Assembly (NCBI GenBank): GCA_963677895.2
Contig: CAXXGJ010000018.1
Coordinates: forward strand, 256,001 to 320,000
DNA: 64,000 bases
Source of the DNA: Treponemataceae bacterium
GTDB taxonomy: Bacteria > Spirochaetota > Spirochaetia > Treponematales > Rectinemataceae
Direction: 5' to 3'
A program made the position numbers. This document shows positions 27,701-33,700 of the stretch, in pieces. Position 1 is the first letter of the stretch, and the number at the start of each line of letters is the position of its first letter.

Positions 27701-30700
27701 TCTCGATATCCACGGCAGGCTGAATATCTGCACGAGCACGCAGAATCCCTTCCATACGCGGCGCATCCTCGGCCAGGCGCTTTCAATGCCCCTCTCCCGG
27801 ATCAGGGTGATGAAGCCGAGGATCGGCGGAGGTTTCGGCGGAAAGCAGCATATCCACGTCGAGCCCTTCGTCGCGCTTGTCACCTTGAGGACCGGCCGCG
27901 CCGCGCGCATCGCCTTAAGCCGCAGGGAAGTGTTCGAAGCCACCTTCTGCCGGCATCAGATGCGCATAAGCATGCGTATCGGAGCCGACAAGGATGGTTC
28001 GCTCAACGTAGTCGACATGAACGTGCTCTCCAACACGGGCGCGTACGGGGAACACGCGTTGACCGTCTTCATGGTGGGGGGCTCCAAGACTTTGCCGCTC
28101 TACAACAAGACGAAAGCCGTGCACTACGGCGGAAAGGTCGTGTACACCAACAAGGTTTCCTCGGGCGCTTTCCGCGGTTACGGCGCCATCCAGGGGAATT
28201 TCGCCCTCGAGTCGATGATGGATGAACTGGCGCACGCGCTGCGGCTGGACCCGGTCGCCCTGCGCGAGAAGAATATGATCCGCGAAGGCGAGACGAGCGA
28301 GGTTTTCCGGATCATGGGCGAGGGAAGCGAAGGCATTGAAATGACGGTCGAGTCCTGCAAGCTCGATTACTGCGTCGCGCGCGGCAAGGAACTGATCGGA
28401 TGGGAGCCCGGAAGTCTGGCGCGGGAAGTGGCGCCTGGCCGGATCAGGGCCAAAGGAATGGCCATAGCGATGCAGGGATCGGGCATTCCGCTCGTCGATA
28501 TGGGATCGGCGACGCTCGAACTTCAGGACGGAGGATGCTTCAAGCTGCGGGTGGGCGCCACCGACCTGGGCACGGGCAGCGACACGATTCTCGCCCAGAT
28601 AGCCGCGGAAGAACTCGGGATTCCGGTTTCCTCCATCGTCGTGTACGCGTCGGACACGGATCACACTCCTTTCGACGTAGGCGCCTACGCGTCGAGCACC
28701 ACCTATGTGTCGGGCAACGCTGTCCTCTCCGCGGCCAGGAAAATGAAGATTGTCCTGGAGGAAGCGGTTGCGGAACGTTATGCGATAAACAAAGACGAAG
28801 TGATCTTTGACGGCGTCAATTTTCTTAGGAACGACGGGACTGCCCTTGTCGGTTTGGCGGAATTCAGTTTCGATACGCTCTACCACAACGGCGAGCTCAT
28901 GAAGACCTTGACCGCGACGGCTTCCTTCACCGGGGAAAAGTCGCCGCCGCCTTACATGGCCGGTTTCGCCGAAATCGAGGTGGATCTCGAGACAGGGAAA
29001 GTGGATCTTCTGAAGTACGTCGCGGTGGTCGATTGCGGCACGACGATAAATCCCAATCTCGCGCGCATCCAGATGGAGGGGGGACTGCTCCAGGGCATCG
29101 GCATGGCCTTGTTCGAGAATGTCAAATACAGCGGTAAAGGGAAGCTTCTCACGAACAGCCTCATGACCTATACGGTGCCGTCGCGCGAGGATGTCGGCGA
29201 GATAATCGTGGAGTTCGCGGACAGCTACGAACCTTCGGGTCCTTTCGGCGCCAAGTCCGTGGCGGAAATCGGCATCGATACGCCGCCGGCGGCCATCGCC
29301 AACGCTATCCGGAACGCCACCGGTCTTCGTTTTGTCGAAACGCCTTTTACTCCGGAACGCGTGCTGATGGCGCTGAAGGCCGCGGCTAAATAACGCCGAA
29401 CAAAGAGAGCCGAGGGAATAAGACCTAGGAAAGACGCCGCATTCGGGGCTTCAGCGTTCCGATGGATCGAGGGCGGTTATTCCCGGGAGCGATAGCCGCT
29501 CCAGATATTCGAGGAACGCGCGGGGACCCGAGGAAATATGGAGATTGAGGAAGTCCGGAATATCCGATTGCTTTTCTTCCTCGCTGCATACGATCGTCAG
29601 CGCGCCGCGCCGAATGGCTTTATGCAAGGCGGTCTTGTCGGCGGCGATGTTCCTTTGCGTCCTGTTTCCCCGGCCTGGAATCAGTTCTTCGAGATGAGCC
29701 TGTCCTGACCAGAGAATGGTCTTTGCCCCATCGAGCTTTCGAGCCAGCAGTTCCAGACCCTCCCTGCCGTCCATTTTCCCTTCCATCGTCATGATCAACT
29801 TGTCGGGGTAAGAGACTTTGAACGCGTCCATCATCGCCTGGGCAGCCTGCGGCGCGGAACGGATTGCCTGTTCCTCTCCTTCCGCGTCCAAGCCTTCCAG
29901 GGTGATGATCGCCAAGGAATCGACCCTGGGCAGCAATGCCGCCATGACGCCGAATTGGGCCCTCGTTTCCCTGCCGGCGAAAACGGCGATGAAGGGTCTC
30001 GGTGGATTTTCCAGGAGGGTCTCCAGTATCGCCAGCTCCTTGGCCACCATTGGGCCCGCGAGGCGGTGATCGACGAATTTGGGGACGCCCGTGATGCTCG
30101 CATGGCGCCGATGGCAGACGTTGAACGCGTCGTTGACATACCATCCATCGGAGAGGGCGGCGAGGGAGCGCGAAAAAGCCTCGTCATTGTCCCGCTCGCC
30201 CGTGGCGAAACGAAGATTCTCCAGAAGGTTTACAGCGCCGGGGACAATGTCCTTTTTCGTGATGAGGAGGCCGGATGCGGCCACGCTCGTCTTATGGAAC
30301 ACAAGCGGTTTGCCAAGCTGCTGTCCAAGCGCTTCCGCGATAGGCCCGAGGCTGAAATCGCGGGATATTTCTTCCCTGGTGAGTCGCGCGTCGAGACCGG
30401 CGCCCGGATCGCCGAGATGGGAACAGACAATGGGCGTCCCTCCCTTGGCGAGGATCGATTCCAGCGTCGGTGCGATTTGCCGGATGCGCTGCATGCTGCT
30501 TGTCTTCCCGCGGCGGATCTCCACATTCACGTCCACCCGTACGAGGACGAATCCTCCATTGAAGGAATCCACTTTGCCGAGATCGGCTCTGTGGAGATTC
30601 GTCTCGCGATGGAGGCGGGTCAGTTCGGAATCGATAAGGCTCCTGACGACCTGGGCTGCCCCGGCCGCCGTCGGGCAGCGCCCGACGGCGGCGCTCACCG

Positions 30701-33700
30701 TGGCGAGCGGAAGGAAAAACTCGGAAATGGGCGCGATGCCCCGATATACCGCCCCGGTGTTTCCGTCGGCCGTCACGCGTTCCCCCTCGCGCAGGACGGC
30801 ATCACCCGCGGCGTGGAAGATCACCAGGCTTTTTTCATAATCGATTTCCACGTCGTCGCAGCCGACGATGCATGGCTTATTCATGGACATCGCGGTGATG
30901 GCCGCGTGCGACGTCCTCCCCGGGTAGACGGTCACGATGGCGTGAGCGCCGTTCATCACGTCGAAATCCGTGGGTTTCGTGTTGTAGGCGATATAGACGA
31001 CGCTTTCTCTTCTCGCGGTCGCTTCCTTGAGGCGCGCCTCGCTGAGCACGAGGGTTCCCGAAACGACGCCGCCGTTGATCGGCACGCCGACGCTGAGCGG
31101 CGGATTCCATCGCCTCGAGCGGAAATCGGCGCGAGGCAGAGCGGCGTTCGCGTACGCCATCTCGAGCCGATCGATCCTCGACCTGTATTCGGTCAAATCG
31201 ATGATGCTTCGACCGAGAAAGTCCGTATCGGCGACGAGCTGCGCGAAGGCTCCCAGTCTGGCCGCCCTGGCCTGAAGAAAAAAGAGGTCGCCGTTTTCGA
31301 CCGTGAATTCCAGGTCCAAATCCTGCCGGTAATGTTCGATGAGCAGCTTTTTCGCGCGTTCCAGTTTTTCGCCGATTTTAGGATCAAGCCTGGATATGGG
31401 TTCCGTATTGGCGCTTCCCATGACCACTTCCTCGCCCTGGGCCATCCTCTTGAATTCCCCAAAAAGCTCGTCGTCCCCGGTGATGGGGTTCCGCGTGATC
31501 AGTACGCCGCTCAGGGATTTCTGGTTCAGGTTCCCGAAAGCCAGTTGCTGGACCGTCACCGCCGTCTCGGCATTGACGTTGGCCGCCAGCGTTCGGGAAT
31601 AGGCGTTCACCGCCCTGGATCTTCTCGATCCATAGACAAGCCCGACGCAGCGCAGAAGCTGTTCCTCCGGATCGATGAGGAAACGTTGGCCGAGCGCCTC
31701 CGCCAGACGCGCCTCCATCGCCTCAACCGCGCTTTCCTCTTCTTTTCCTGCCTGGCCGGCGCCCGCATCGCCGTCCAATTCCGTATCGCCATCAATGCCT
31801 TCATCGCTGTCCAAACCTGACATAAGATCCAAAGCCGACAGGCAGTTTTCCAGAAAACGGCGATAGAGCGAGGCGGTGAGATGGACGCCCCTCCGCTTCT
31901 CCATATGAACGCGTACATCGGGGCTCCATCCAACATTGAGGATAGTCGCCATGACTCCGGGCATGGAAGTGGGAGCGCCCGAACGGACCGATACGAGCAG
32001 TGGATGCTCTGGATCGCCAAGCTTTCGTCCGCTTTGTTCCTCAAGTTCCTTCACTTTTTCGCGGATGGCTGCGGTGAGTACTTCCTTGAGGGCTCCATCA
32101 GTATCCCAGCCGGCGAAGAAAGGGAAGCCGAGCACGAAGGCCGGAGGGACATGAAGTCCCAATCGCGCCATATCGATGATGCTGTTGCCTTTGCCGCCCA
32201 ACGAGGCCCTGATGCTCTCGTCCGCTTCCTTCCATGTCGCGGCGATGAAGGATTGCTGATCCAGCTCGAGGCCGGCCTTGCCCGTGCTAAGGTCGGCGTA
32301 CAGCTGCCTGTCGTCCGTCTGGCGTTCCAGCTCCCTGTCCACGGCCGCCGCCACTTTTTCGGTGAATTCGCTCAACACGTGTATCTGGGTGCGGCGGATG
32401 AAGTTGTTGAAGAAGCGGGTTTTTATGGGGGAAAGCTTGGATGTGGGAACCTCGTACTCTTCCAGGGTTCTGTTCAGTATGCCGCTCATCTTGTCGATGA
32501 TGTCCGACTGCAGATAGTGCTGCAGTTCGTTGCATATGGATCCCAGGCAACGTTTCGCCTTGATGAAATCGTATACGGACGATTCGCGAAGTTCGTCGAT
32601 TTCGGCCTGATGGGCTTCGACATCGCCTATCGCGAGCCCTTTTATGCTGGAGATATTGAGCAGTTCGCGCATGACCGCCAGCGTGTCCCGGAGATTGCGG
32701 GGGGTGACCTCCGCGAAGTGGTTGTTCGTCAGATCGTTCGCGAGCAGGAAGACGAGCCTGCCCAGCGACAGGTCCAGGAGCAGGAAATCGTAGAGGCTTA
32801 TCCGCGATTCGTGGAATGATTCCTTGAGGTAATGTTTGAAGCTCGCCAGACGCTTCAGGAGATCGAGTTCGAGATAGGGCTTGGCCAGGTTGTCCGGCGT
32901 GAGCATTTCGAGAAAACCCTTCACTTCGGCCTTGAGGAAGCATCGTTCAAAAAGGTCCAGATTCTGCTCAAGCTGCCGCTTGACGGACGCGAGGTTTCCC
33001 TTCTCATAGTCCCATAGATAATTCAAGCGCTCCAGAAGATCTTCGGCGAGCTCGATGAAATGGTTGCCTTCGTTTTCGGCGGAGAAGAGCCGCGGCAAGG
33101 CCACGTAACCCGCCTTCACCATCGGTTCGGGATTCCCATGCTTTGCCAACTGAAGGTAAGGCAGAAGGTAGCCATGGATGATTCTGGGCGAAAGGCGCCG
33201 GTGGACTTCTTTACGCAGGTCTCCGGCGAAGCCCAGAAGGGGGTCGTCCTCGCTGCGCTCCTCTTCGAAGGCTTCGGCCGTCGCGCGGATCTGCTCTATC
33301 ATCTCCTCGGCGTCCTGGCGCAGAGGCAGTTTCTTGAGCACCTCGCGGGCATAATAGATGAAGTTCGCCGATGGCTGACTTACCGCCGCGAGCATTTCCC
33401 TCGCTTCCCTTTCTATGTCGGCGTAAAGGGTTTCGATATCGCCCTTCTTCTGCCTCATGTCGGGAACGCATTCGTCCTGTCCCAGGAGGCGGAGATTGAT
33501 AAGGAGTTCTATGAGAAGCTTGATCCGCTCCGTTTCGCCGGAAACTGAGCGGACAAGACGCAGGTGGGAGATTATGCTTTCCCATGTGTTGAGTCGCAGA
33601 GCGCCGCCCCCTGCTTTCACTATGGAGAAAGGGCTTGCCCTTGTCAACAATTGGTGTATAAGTAAGGCTAGGAGGGTAAATTGAAGATTCCGTTCGATCC

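Follow-up and report, generated by a model that had tools for sequence, protein, structure and literature searches.

A pyruvate,phosphate dikinase-type phosphohistidine core fused to a phosphoglycerate kinase fold: a candidate histidine-relay dikinase from a Treponemataceae bacterium

Pyruvate,phosphate dikinase (PPDK; EC 2.7.9.1; TIGR01828; PDB 1KBL, 1DIK, 5JVN) joins an ATP-grasp domain to a swivelling domain that carries the histidine in a G.TSHAA loop, and a linker leads from there to a C-terminal acceptor domain, the PEP/pyruvate TIM barrel. Rifampin phosphotransferase, glucan water dikinase, HpeHI and PigC/HapC belong to the PEP-synthase/water-dikinase branch and phosphorylate hydroxyls of large or aromatic substrates. 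In published accounts each combines ATP-grasp charging, a swivelling histidine and an acceptor-binding domain particular to its family (PMC4844700, PMC13553574, PMC12167813, PMC13534948). VadK (Rv1127c) of Mycobacterium tuberculosis has a PPDK-derived ATP-grasp and histidine domain without the PEP/pyruvate barrel, ends past the histidine domain and is reported to be a regulatory histidine kinase (PMC13400623).

The gene described here, g01527, follows the same charger, swivel and acceptor logic, but differs in that its core is PPDK-like and its acceptor module is a complete glycolytic kinase fold, that of phosphoglycerate kinase (PGK; EC 2.7.2.3; PF00162; PDB 3ZLB, 1VPE). VadK shares the core; g01527 has two further large domains. 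Our literature searches did not find an enzyme with a histidine-relay design for 3-phosphoglycerate (3-PG) and 1,3-bisphosphoglycerate (1,3-BPG).

Within the window, the 64,000-nucleotide stretch of DNA to which all coordinates refer, g01527 occupies 29451..33620 on the minus strand, encodes 1389 aa plus a stop codon and gives a 99.9% self-match by tblastn. The open frame extends from 33893 down to 29451, with GTG 33620 as the start of the 1389-aa form. The start position has a margin of about 30 nt: TTG codons in the same frame at 33650 and 33647 could serve instead, the GTG coincides in part with a promoter-like TTGACA/CATAGT pair, and the longer frame (to 33893) runs into a divergent M24 peptidase gene at 33681–34805. 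The frame is unbroken across 1389 codons, and g01527 is a genuine gene. Elsewhere in the same assembly, several genes look split by frame shifts.

The encoded protein begins with an all-alpha N-domain of 21 helices (residues 1–462; 32235..33620, minus strand, as for all parts below), a 462-aa addition relative to PPDK. A PPDK-type ATP-grasp nucleotide-binding domain (463–840; 31101..32234) and a phosphohistidine swivel domain with the catalytic His905 (845–962; PF00391; 30735..31088) follow. A poorly conserved linker (963–1018; 30567..30734), with predicted helices at 972–980 and 985–1007 (128–136 and 141–163 in the numbering of the AF2 model), leads to a two-domain PGK fold at 1019–1389. The fusion of PPDK-type parts and a PGK proposed in an earlier note was confirmed for this gene by Pfam (PPDK_N 513–739, PEP-utilizers 872–956, PGK 1020–1238, the last covering model positions 6–212 of 379 with E 2.4e-53), TIGR01828 (residues 463–966, model positions 7–508 of 865), solved structures (PPDKs over 463–967, PGKs within 1010–1257) and tblastn with the genome's own PPDK (474–967, 31.8%) and PGK (1022–1238, 32.5%). 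The TIGR01828 score lies far under the cut-off (326.8 against 843 bits), and PF02896, the PEP/pyruvate barrel, is not matched. A PGK fold stands there instead: the PGK module fills exactly the slot of the barrel, past the swivel domain and the helical linker.

The module comprises an N-terminal, 3-PG-binding domain (1019–1205; 30006..30566), a C-terminal domain whose nucleotide site is degenerate (1206–1355; 29556..30005) and a well-conserved terminal segment homologous to that of PGK, which reads HxSxGPRAFLEYLERLSLPG (1356–1389; 29454..29555). An AF2 model of residues 845–1389 (pLDDT 82.7, pTM 0.82) superposes with whole PGKs over both domains, best with 3zlb (Z 33.4, rmsd 3.0 Å, 340/398 residues, model residues 165–543). 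The fold of the C-domain is retained, and a weak second HMMER stretch matches it to residues 295–393 of 1VPE (i-Evalue 3.7e-4).

The earlier note had counted about 90 homologue clusters, and we find 91 (P0002–P0092), every one with PF01326, PF00391 and PF00162. The architecture recurs, at 40–99% identity, in Spirochaetota and in a second clade of metagenome-assembled Riflebacteria, Elusimicrobia and Wallbacteria. We aligned 82 proteins, 47 from the Spirochaetota clade (clade A) and 35 from the other, or sister, clade. Throughout the alignment, the dikinase half keeps its catalytic residues without exception. The ATP-grasp motifs GGKG, VRSG, SMPG, TRNP, QGE.VV, D.EFT and LQ.R are present in both clades, and the domain has an acidic insert of low conservation near 600–650; 69 of 136 PPDK-invariant columns are retained at 90% or more in both, including every nameable ATP-grasp motif and G.TSHAA.

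The loop around His905 (codon 30906–30908), [YF]PGRTSHAAIT, differs from that of 29 PPDKs, RGG[MKV]TSHAAVVARG. His905, Pro900, Arg902, Ile908 and Asn914 each occur in 82/82 fusions, the last four marking a remodelling that is absent from the PPDKs and from P0135, a relative without PGK. This remodelling tracks the presence of the PGK and not that of the N-domain.

The motifs named earlier as conserved were confirmed: in the 82 sequences GRTSHAA never varies, nor do Arg, Asp and Asn in RVDxN, Gly in SHLG, or Glu and Asn in ENLR. Each clade keeps, in 94% or more of its members, Ser and His in SHLG, Arg in ENLR and the majority of DAF..R.HAS positions. In g01527 six of the seven 3-PG-site residues are retained (Asp, Asn, Arg, His, Arg, Arg), and the equivalent of Arg65 is Asp. 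The same count of six holds for 73 of the 82 members, the seventh being Asp or Glu in all 82, and in our alignment Ser replaces the Arg38 equivalent in seven of the 47 clade-A proteins. The Asp had been read as a warning sign, a concern that falls away: it also occupies this position in the organism's own PGK and in 8/30 canonical PGKs of carrier genomes. Spirochaete-type housekeeping PGKs resemble g01527 in two more respects, lacking an acidic residue at the Asp218 position and carrying an insert past SHLG[DE]P.

The nucleotide site differs from that of canonical PGKs. In g01527, 14 of 17 nucleotide-binding and catalytic C-domain residues are replaced (Lys215 equivalent Glu, GGGDS to C---S, STGGGA to SSGPRA), leaving 3/17. 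The claimed loss of the nucleotide loops holds for g01527 and for the 47 clade-A sequences (2–6 of 17 retained), but not as a family trait, since 29 of the 35 sister-clade members keep 17/17 (the other six, 5–12) and the Pfam PGK match there runs from positions 2–7 to 377 at 396–418 bits. Mean identity within clade A is 0.38 for the PGK C-domain, against 0.60–0.76 for N-domain, ATP-grasp, swivel and PGK N-terminal domain; in the sister clade this C-domain is the most conserved (0.80). The fusion PGK modules form one clade in the tree (SH-aLRT 100), which points to a single origin, as does clade A (100), with the decayed forms nested. Hence, loss of the nucleotide site is derived, and the fusion can dispense with this site. 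For clade A, the decayed pocket rules out ATP as the direct donor at the PGK site. In the sister clade, the intact and highly conserved site suggests that ATP/ADP binding there must matter, which a simple relay does not need, so that, on this sequence evidence, the family as a whole cannot be fitted to a pure 'PGK without ATP' model.

With these data, we tentatively favor, while holding it somewhat short of probable, that g01527 is a histidine-relay dikinase of the PPDK/PEP-synthase kind in which the PGK replaces the PEP/pyruvate barrel and 3-PG/1,3-BPG is the third substrate. The ATP-grasp domain would load His905 from ATP, releasing AMP and passing the gamma-phosphate to an acceptor, presumably Pi rather than water, to give PPi. 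The swivel domain would then turn on its linkers and carry the phosphohistidine into reach of the PGK cleft, where 3-PG, in the conserved site of the PGK N-domain, would reversibly take the phosphate on its carboxylate and become 1,3-BPG. The net reaction would be ATP + Pi + 3-PG <-> AMP + PPi + 1,3-BPG; that the histidine reaches bound 3-PG, which substrate is used, that PPi is formed and which way the reaction runs in the cell are predictions of the scheme. We infer PPi, not Pi, as by-product solely because the protein resembles PPDK more closely than it does PEP synthase. By standard free energies this reaction lies at about +4 kJ/mol, near equilibrium, and that of ordinary PGK in the same direction at about +19 kJ/mol.

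The placement of the PGK in the barrel position, the invariant ATP-grasp residues and histidine, a kept 3-PG site beside a nucleotide site that could decay, and the remodelled histidine loop together fit phosphoryl transfer between the phosphohistidine and 3-PG/1,3-BPG. To this extent, the earlier reading as a 3-phosphoglycerate,phosphate dikinase is supported; it is weakened by the complete nucleotide site of 29/35 sister-clade members, by the location of the best-conserved block in the N-domain, whose role the scheme leaves unexplained, by the Ser in 7/47, by relatives lacking the PGK, and by an accessory, patchy spread with no conserved neighbours. Swapping of the acceptor domain has precedents in rifampin phosphotransferase, glucan water dikinase and HpeHI.

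The relaxed constraint on the clade-A PGK C-domain, like the patchy and accessory spread, would also suit a regulatory kinase whose dikinase core autophosphorylates in the manner of VadK and hands its phosphate on, either to a second protein or to a ligand bound elsewhere, with the PGK, catalytically dead in clade A, only sensing 3-PG or 1,3-BPG and gating the relay. VadK, PPDK-derived and barrel-less, is reported to autophosphorylate and to regulate the methylcitrate cycle (PMC13400623), and 'dead' PGK-like domains joined to regulatory domains are reported in kinetoplastids (PMC7729029). We nevertheless regard this as unlikely: the PGK sits where PPDK has its acceptor domain, the histidine loop is remodelled with the PGK rather than with the N-domain, the sister-clade PGK is a complete, highly constrained enzyme and no decayed sensor, and no partner gene is conserved nearby. 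Furthermore, NF004531, a short PPDK model of 534 positions that we take to be of the VadK type, scores g01527 at 284.7 bits, short of its 456-bit cut-off.

The N-domain invites yet another interpretation. Residues 101–150 are the most conserved 50-residue block of the whole protein (0.77) and are rich in invariant Arg, Lys, His, Asp and Glu. The domain matches no Pfam or NCBIfam family; its AF2 model (pLDDT 88.7) finds nothing in the PDB by Foldseek at E<=0.001, and a wide structure comparison reaches at best Z 10.9, with four-helix bundles, a value no higher than the noise seen with helical models. A search of 1.84 billion representatives gave just 23 matches, always together with PPDK_N: family members, fragments, or rare dikinase-like proteins without PGK that have N-domain and PPDK_N, some with the swivel. 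P0135 and P0142 (1150–1155 aa) retain N-domain, ATP-grasp and histidine, which suggests that a working module of these three parts exists without PGK. The N-domain could be the true acceptor-binding, third catalytic site for a substrate X, as in these relatives, with the PGK as a further entry point: 1,3-BPG or, in the sister clade, ATP via bound 3-PG would load the histidine there, so that phosphorylation of X would draw on glycolytic acyl-phosphate or ATP. The substrate-binding modules of glucan water dikinase are likewise reported to be N-terminal (bioRxiv 10.64898/2026.02.06.704335). This account is, in our view, quite improbable, as neither fold nor family hints at a ligand, the domain might just as well serve the ATP-grasp as a scaffold for dimerisation or regulation, no more than two clusters of PGK-less relatives are robust, and one histidine serving three active sites would be unprecedented.

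The fusion gene is found in 9 of 36 other genomes of the host's family and in none of 300 genomes of a phylum-wide sample, while 38 of 45 carrier genomes also have a full-length canonical PGK. As the earlier note had stated, no operon partner is conserved, here among 62 loci. In a single genome (G011, locus L024), a canonical pgk lies 13 nt after the fusion gene on the same strand, which we count in support of the relay. Given the co-existing canonical PGK, the patchy spread and the lack of a conserved partner, the gene is accessory and not a core glycolytic step, and the proposal of a fourth PPi-dependent glycolytic step is not supported.

The fast divergence of the clade-A PGK C-domain, together with the frame-shift-split genes of this assembly, might instead point to a chance fusion or decaying gene, a PPDK and a PGK fragment with no joint chemistry. 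The intact 1389-codon frame, the uniform architecture of 91 clusters across two clades at 40–99% identity, the invariant catalytic motifs and the single origin of the PGK modules speak against it, and this conservation pattern makes it very unlikely. If the histidine-relay reading is true, g01527 may move phosphate onto or off 3-phosphoglycerate in an undescribed way.

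The fusion gene lies on the minus strand of the window, in an open frame that runs from 33893 down to 29451. Its annotated start, GTG 33620, gives the 1389-aa form and is overlapped by a sigma-70-like pair (TTGACA/CATAGT); two in-frame TTG codons, 33650 and 33647, could serve instead. Since a divergent M24 peptidase gene (33681–34805) occupies the part of the frame upstream of about 33680, we place the start near 33620–33650. The gene is solitary, flanked by a converging molybdenum-hydroxylase operon (25830–29393) and the diverging peptidase. In agreement with the earlier note, which had seen no conserved operon partner, no neighbour family is conserved in 62 related loci, where generic MFS transporters (5, adjacent in 5/5), ribokinase-like PfkB (5) and GlmS-like proteins (5) turn up most often. 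Elsewhere in the window, a plus-strand cluster at 35021–44351 encodes a GntR/FCD regulator, an RraA-like aldolase, an Ldh_2 dehydrogenase, an aldehyde:ferredoxin oxidoreductase, an SDR, a creatininase-family amidohydrolase and a TRAP transporter (DctPQM), and looks like an acid-catabolism locus; the stretch 52001–58000 has a G+C content of 0.455–0.472, compared with about 0.55–0.62 over most of the window, and may be a foreign island.

Pfam places PPDK_N at residues 513–739 of the protein, PEP-utilizers (PF00391) at 872–956 and PGK (PF00162) at 1020–1238, the last over model positions 6–212 of 379. The PPDK equivalog TIGR01828 matches residues 463–966 with its positions 7–508 of 865, and the whole-protein score of 326.8 bits is far below the curated cut-off of 843.45. 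Solved structures matched are PPDKs at 463–967 and PGKs within 1010–1257. The matches previously reported to the genome's own enzymes were reproduced by tblastn (PPDK at 474–967, 31.8% identity; PGK at 1022–1238, 32.5%), as was the existence of homologues with all three Pfam families: 91 clusters carry PF01326, PF00391 and PF00162, under source names that read only "phosphoglycerate kinase", "pyruvate orthophosphate dikinase" or a domain list. The family alignment of 82 rows comprises the query and 81 of these clusters; one that is 99% identical to the query (P0002) and nine shorter than 1300 aa were dropped.

Judged from its sequence, the dikinase half of the fusion looks catalytically competent. 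Within the first 560 residues of 29 PPDKs, 136 columns reach an invariance of 96% or above; both fusion clades retain 69 of these in at least 90% of their sequences, including GGKG, VRSG, SMPG, TRNP..G, QGE.VV.G, D.EFT, LQ.R and G.TSHAA with His905. The ATP-grasp motifs GGKG, VRSG, SMPG, TRNP, QGE.VV, D.EFT and LQ.R, which are common to the fusion and the TIGR01828 family, are kept at 0.83–1.0 in both clades, most of them at 0.97 or above; the binding or catalytic role of each dikinase motif is our presumption. The swivel domain (PF00391) with its catalytic histidine is likewise shared with PPDK, and the histidine motif described before as kept is indeed there, with His905 in 82/82 sequences. 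The loop around this residue reads [YF]-P-G-R-T-S-H-A-A-I-T..N in all 82 members of the family, R-G-G-[MKV]-T-S-H-A-A-V-V-A-R-G in the 29 PPDKs and V-G-G-P-T-S-H-A-A-I-N-A-R in P0135, a protein cluster that lacks the PGK part. Unlike PPDK, the fusion has no C-terminal PEP/pyruvate TIM barrel (PF02896, no match at E ≤ 0.1), and its last 380 residues are predicted to fold as a PGK. The PGK occupies the acceptor position of PPDK, with the histidine loop altered where PGK is present. In having an ATP-grasp charger, a swivel histidine and a separate module in one polypeptide, the fusion resembles the histidine-relay dikinases (PPDK_N plus PEP-utilizers mobile domain superfamily), and the PGK module would be its acceptor site. 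Complex prediction of the swivel domain (845–965) with the PGK module (1010–1389) gave a score of 0.00, which counts neither for nor against a contact between them.

The truncated PPDKs of the VadK type, named after a barrel-less PPDK-derived protein of M. tuberculosis, end after the histidine domain, whereas the fusion carries two further domains. It scores 284.7 bits against NF004531, which we take to be the VadK-type model, under the cut-off of 456. A sensor or regulator acting in the manner of VadK is an unlikely reading of the fusion, albeit one with appreciable weight.

The PGK module is, by structure prediction, a whole PGK fold. An AF2 model of residues 845–1389, built from a 36-row alignment (pLDDT 82.7, pTM 0.82), shows the two-domain fold and superposes on complete PGKs, which upholds the PGK-like structure match claimed before; the best is 3zlb (Z 33.4, rmsd 3.0 Å over 340/398 residues), covering model residues 165–543, that is, 1009–1387 of the protein, and all of the best 50 structure matches listed for this model are PGKs. 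When the PGK part alone was used as query, HMMER gave a weak second stretch against residues 295–393 of Thermotoga PGK (i-Evalue 3.7e-4).

The 3-PG site had been described as kept. We counted seven positions, taking Arg38 to be the seventh, and this gene has six of the seven residues, the equivalent of Arg65 being Asp. Six of seven positions are retained in 73/82 family members, the Arg38 equivalent is aligned as Ser in seven members of the Spirochaetota clade, and all 82 have Asp or Glu in place of Arg65. Apart from Arg38, the seven are the 3-PG contacts listed in a review of PGK: Asp23, Asn25, His62, Arg65, Arg122 and Arg170 (PMC7729029, section 3.1). The same review describes for human PGK a domain-closure salt bridge, Arg65–Asp218 (PMC7729029, section 3.2). 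Loss of this bridge was considered as a hallmark of the fusion and ruled out, as canonical PGKs vary likewise: among 30 canonical PGKs of genomes that carry the fusion, position 65 is Asp in eight and Lys in three, and position 218 is Ser or Thr in 12. SHLGDP with a long insert behind it, and GGAKVSSK, are the readings in the eight spirochaete-type PGKs and in the PGK of the window genome itself. The concern raised in the earlier note over the Asp at position 65 thereby loses its force, since the canonical PGK of this genome has the same residue, as do 8/30 canonical PGKs from carriers; the fusion shares its Asp and its 218 trait with the spirochaete housekeeping PGK, so these traits are no argument against 3-PG binding. 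As to these housekeeping enzymes themselves (L095–L102 and L001), their insert after SHLGDP consists of 20 Lys/Glu-rich residues, and with Asp at the Arg65 position (SHLGDP) and Ser at the Asp218 position (GGAKVSSK) they are without both partners of the closure salt bridge.

The nucleotide side of the module exists in two states. For the scoring we took 17 C-domain positions at which the 30 canonical PGKs do not vary (S or T allowed at one), covering the nucleotide and catalytic motifs GGAKVxDK, GGG, WNGPxGxFE, GGGD[ST] and STGGGA. This gene has 3 of the 17 residues left, and the 47 sequences of the Spirochaetota clade keep two to six (median 4); in the other clade, which by record titles comprises Riflebacteria/Ozemobacteraceae, Elusimicrobia and Wallbacteria, 29 of 35 sequences have all 17 and six intermediates (P0062, P0066, P0081, P0083, P0085 and P0088) keep 5–12. 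The claim that the nucleotide loops are lost therefore holds for the Spirochaetota clade only. Whole-genome searches gave the same picture: in 23 genomes the PGK part of the fusion matches Pfam PGK from positions 2–7 to 377 at 396–418 bits (one more ends at a contig end), and in spirochaete genomes mostly to position ~212 only, at 143–184 bits. Mean pairwise identity in the Spirochaetota clade is 0.66 for the N-domain, 0.60 for the ATP-grasp, 0.76 for the swivel domain, 0.60 for the N-terminal and 0.38 for the C-terminal half of PGK; in the group with 17 of 17 the C-terminal half reaches 0.80, the highest value among the large domains.

In trees of the fusion PGK modules with the 30 canonical PGKs, all fusion modules form one clade (FastTree 100; IQ-TREE SH-aLRT 100), the Spirochaetota clade is monophyletic (support 100), and the branches of the intermediates fall between it and the intact group. 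From the states of the site in each clade and these nested positions we conclude, on sequence grounds, that the degenerate nucleotide site of this gene is derived, by stepwise loss. The fusion modules come out as sister to the spirochaete-type PGKs with a FastTree support of 100 and an IQ-TREE SH-aLRT of only 68, and since the latter is low, we base this relation chiefly on the Asp, the Ser and the insert that the two have in common.

The N-domain (residues 1–462) has no family match in Pfam or NCBIfam. Its model consists of 21 helices (pLDDT 88.7); Foldseek against the PDB returned nothing at E ≤ 0.001, the best score in the ESM Atlas was 0.84, to unnamed clusters only, and the best VIA wide match, to four-helix bundles, had a Z of 10.9, which falls within the range given as noise for helical models. 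The domain is rich in invariant charged residues, and no other 50-residue block of the fusion is as conserved as its residues 101–150 (0.77); the conserved patch of the domain spans residues 92–144. A search of 1.84 billion representatives gave 23 matches, namely family members, fragments and PGK-less proteins; two of the 23 (P0139 and P0140) are short and weak. Four PGK-less matches (P0135, P0136, P0137 and P0141) have only PPDK_N in Pfam, with PEP-utilizers in addition in P0135 and P0137. P0135 aligns with the N-domain over 426 residues (22% identity, E 2e-14), retains GGPTSHAA, terminates about 40 residues past the swivel domain and has relatives in only one or two clusters. From this architecture it follows that the N-domain with ATP-grasp and histidine module exists without PGK. 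Any full mechanism must assign the N-domain a role; that it serves as the acceptor of the phosphoryl group is distinctly unlikely in our judgement. Rare proteins of 1150–1155 aa (P0135, P0142) consist of an extra N-terminal stretch of ~170 aa, a distant N-domain, a PPDK ATP-grasp and the swivel histidine, with nothing beyond. The window genome also encodes a 1010-aa protein (L005:130–3162, contig C38) with PPDK_N at 458–829 and a weak receiver-domain match at 241–318; it has no swivel-domain match and is unrelated to the N-domain of the fusion.

To go by the conserved residues, a function common to both clades would draw on the N-domain together with the ATP-grasp and the histidine, and would need the 3-PG side of PGK but not its ATP pocket. 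The simplest mechanism is a relay dikinase acting on 3-PG, a reading that we favour tentatively and rate somewhat short of an even chance. The ATP-grasp would phosphorylate His905, which would pass the phosphoryl group to the carboxylate of 3-PG, with ATP + Pi + 3-PG <-> AMP + PPi + 1,3-BPG as net reaction; by standard free energies this reaction is near equilibrium. Such a relay gives no role to the N-domain and does not explain the intact ATP site of the sister clade.

A long shot that would cover this site is that the family provides half of a substrate cycle that makes (or salvages) PPi, with 3-PG as catalytic carrier. The dikinase half would convert 3-PG to 1,3-BPG with ATP + Pi -> AMP + PPi, and PGK would then turn 1,3-BPG + ADP into 3-PG + ATP, giving in sum ADP + Pi <-> AMP + PPi or, with adenylate kinase, ATP + Pi <-> ADP + PPi. 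The PGK would act in cis, intact, in the Riflebacteria/Elusimicrobia clade, and in trans, as the housekeeping enzyme, in the spirochaete clade; in one genome (G011) it is encoded 13 nt downstream of the fusion. The cycle would thus cover the intact ATP site, its dispensability beside a separate PGK, and the pgk neighbour in G011. There (L024:8816–15334) the last position of the fusion is 14035, and from 14048 a canonical pgk (505.8 bits) follows in the same orientation, a second canonical pgk lying on another contig; the adjacency is a suggestive exception to the unconserved neighbourhoods. A canonical full-length PGK is present in 38/45 carrier genomes searched; of the others, four have a partial one, mostly cut at contig ends, and three, of completeness not given, show the fusion only. 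The PPi source of Clostridium thermocellum is still called "elusive" (PMC8863071); as this organism is not a carrier, the bearing on the cycle is conceptual only.

Of the PPi-linked enzymes ascribed to the window genome, the membrane PPase, a complete PPDK and PPi-PFK (at its cut-off) were found, and pyruvate kinase is present as well. A link of the fusion to PPi metabolism by co-occurrence was tried and dropped: H+-PPase occurs in 35/36 genomes of the family, fusion carriers or not, and being near-universal it does not discriminate carriers. The N-domain itself occurs in 9/36 other genomes of the same family, in 0/24 from other families of the order and in 0/300 others sampled across the phylum. 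The fusion gene is present in groundwater samples, and none of the 21 sequencing runs listed for it is of RNA. In the window genome the two canonical PGK genes (L001, C38:398880–402959; L002/L003, C35:14186–18332) each align to the Pfam model as two segments that lie in different frames, as does PPi-PFK on C21, which points to assembly indel errors or broken genes; one of the two PGKs may be foreign, as assembly contamination is 5.46%. Five spirochaete carriers have a third PGK-like gene (G013:C75, G014:C454, G015:C123, G017:C4 and G018:C60) with frames of 457–494 aa, 321–339 bits and model positions 3–379, distinct from housekeeping PGK and fusion.

The fusion belongs with the modular histidine-relay dikinases and is not a new kind. 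In the literature, with most subscription journals outside coverage, nothing was found on a PPDK–PGK fusion, a PPi-dependent PGK or a phosphoglycerate dikinase. The relevant passages of the PGK review cover PGK–TIM and PGK-like regulatory fusions and do not mention a dikinase–PGK fusion (PMC7729029). Within the family the ATP pocket of PGK grades from complete to decayed, a natural series useful for studying the re-use of a kinase domain as a substrate-binding module, and the 460-aa N-domain, without a match in Pfam, NCBIfam and the fold libraries searched, is at least as conserved as the catalytic parts. If the relay reading is true, the PGK reaction could run by way of a phosphohistidine, coupled to ATP/AMP and Pi/PPi, the dikinase family would gain a new acceptor chemistry (carboxylate to acyl phosphate), and a step of glycolysis and gluconeogenesis thought invariant would have a new energetic version. 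The cycle, if true, would be a dedicated soluble PPi source for PPi-dependent glycolysis. The family is a concrete candidate for a part in PPi homeostasis in anaerobes running on PPi.
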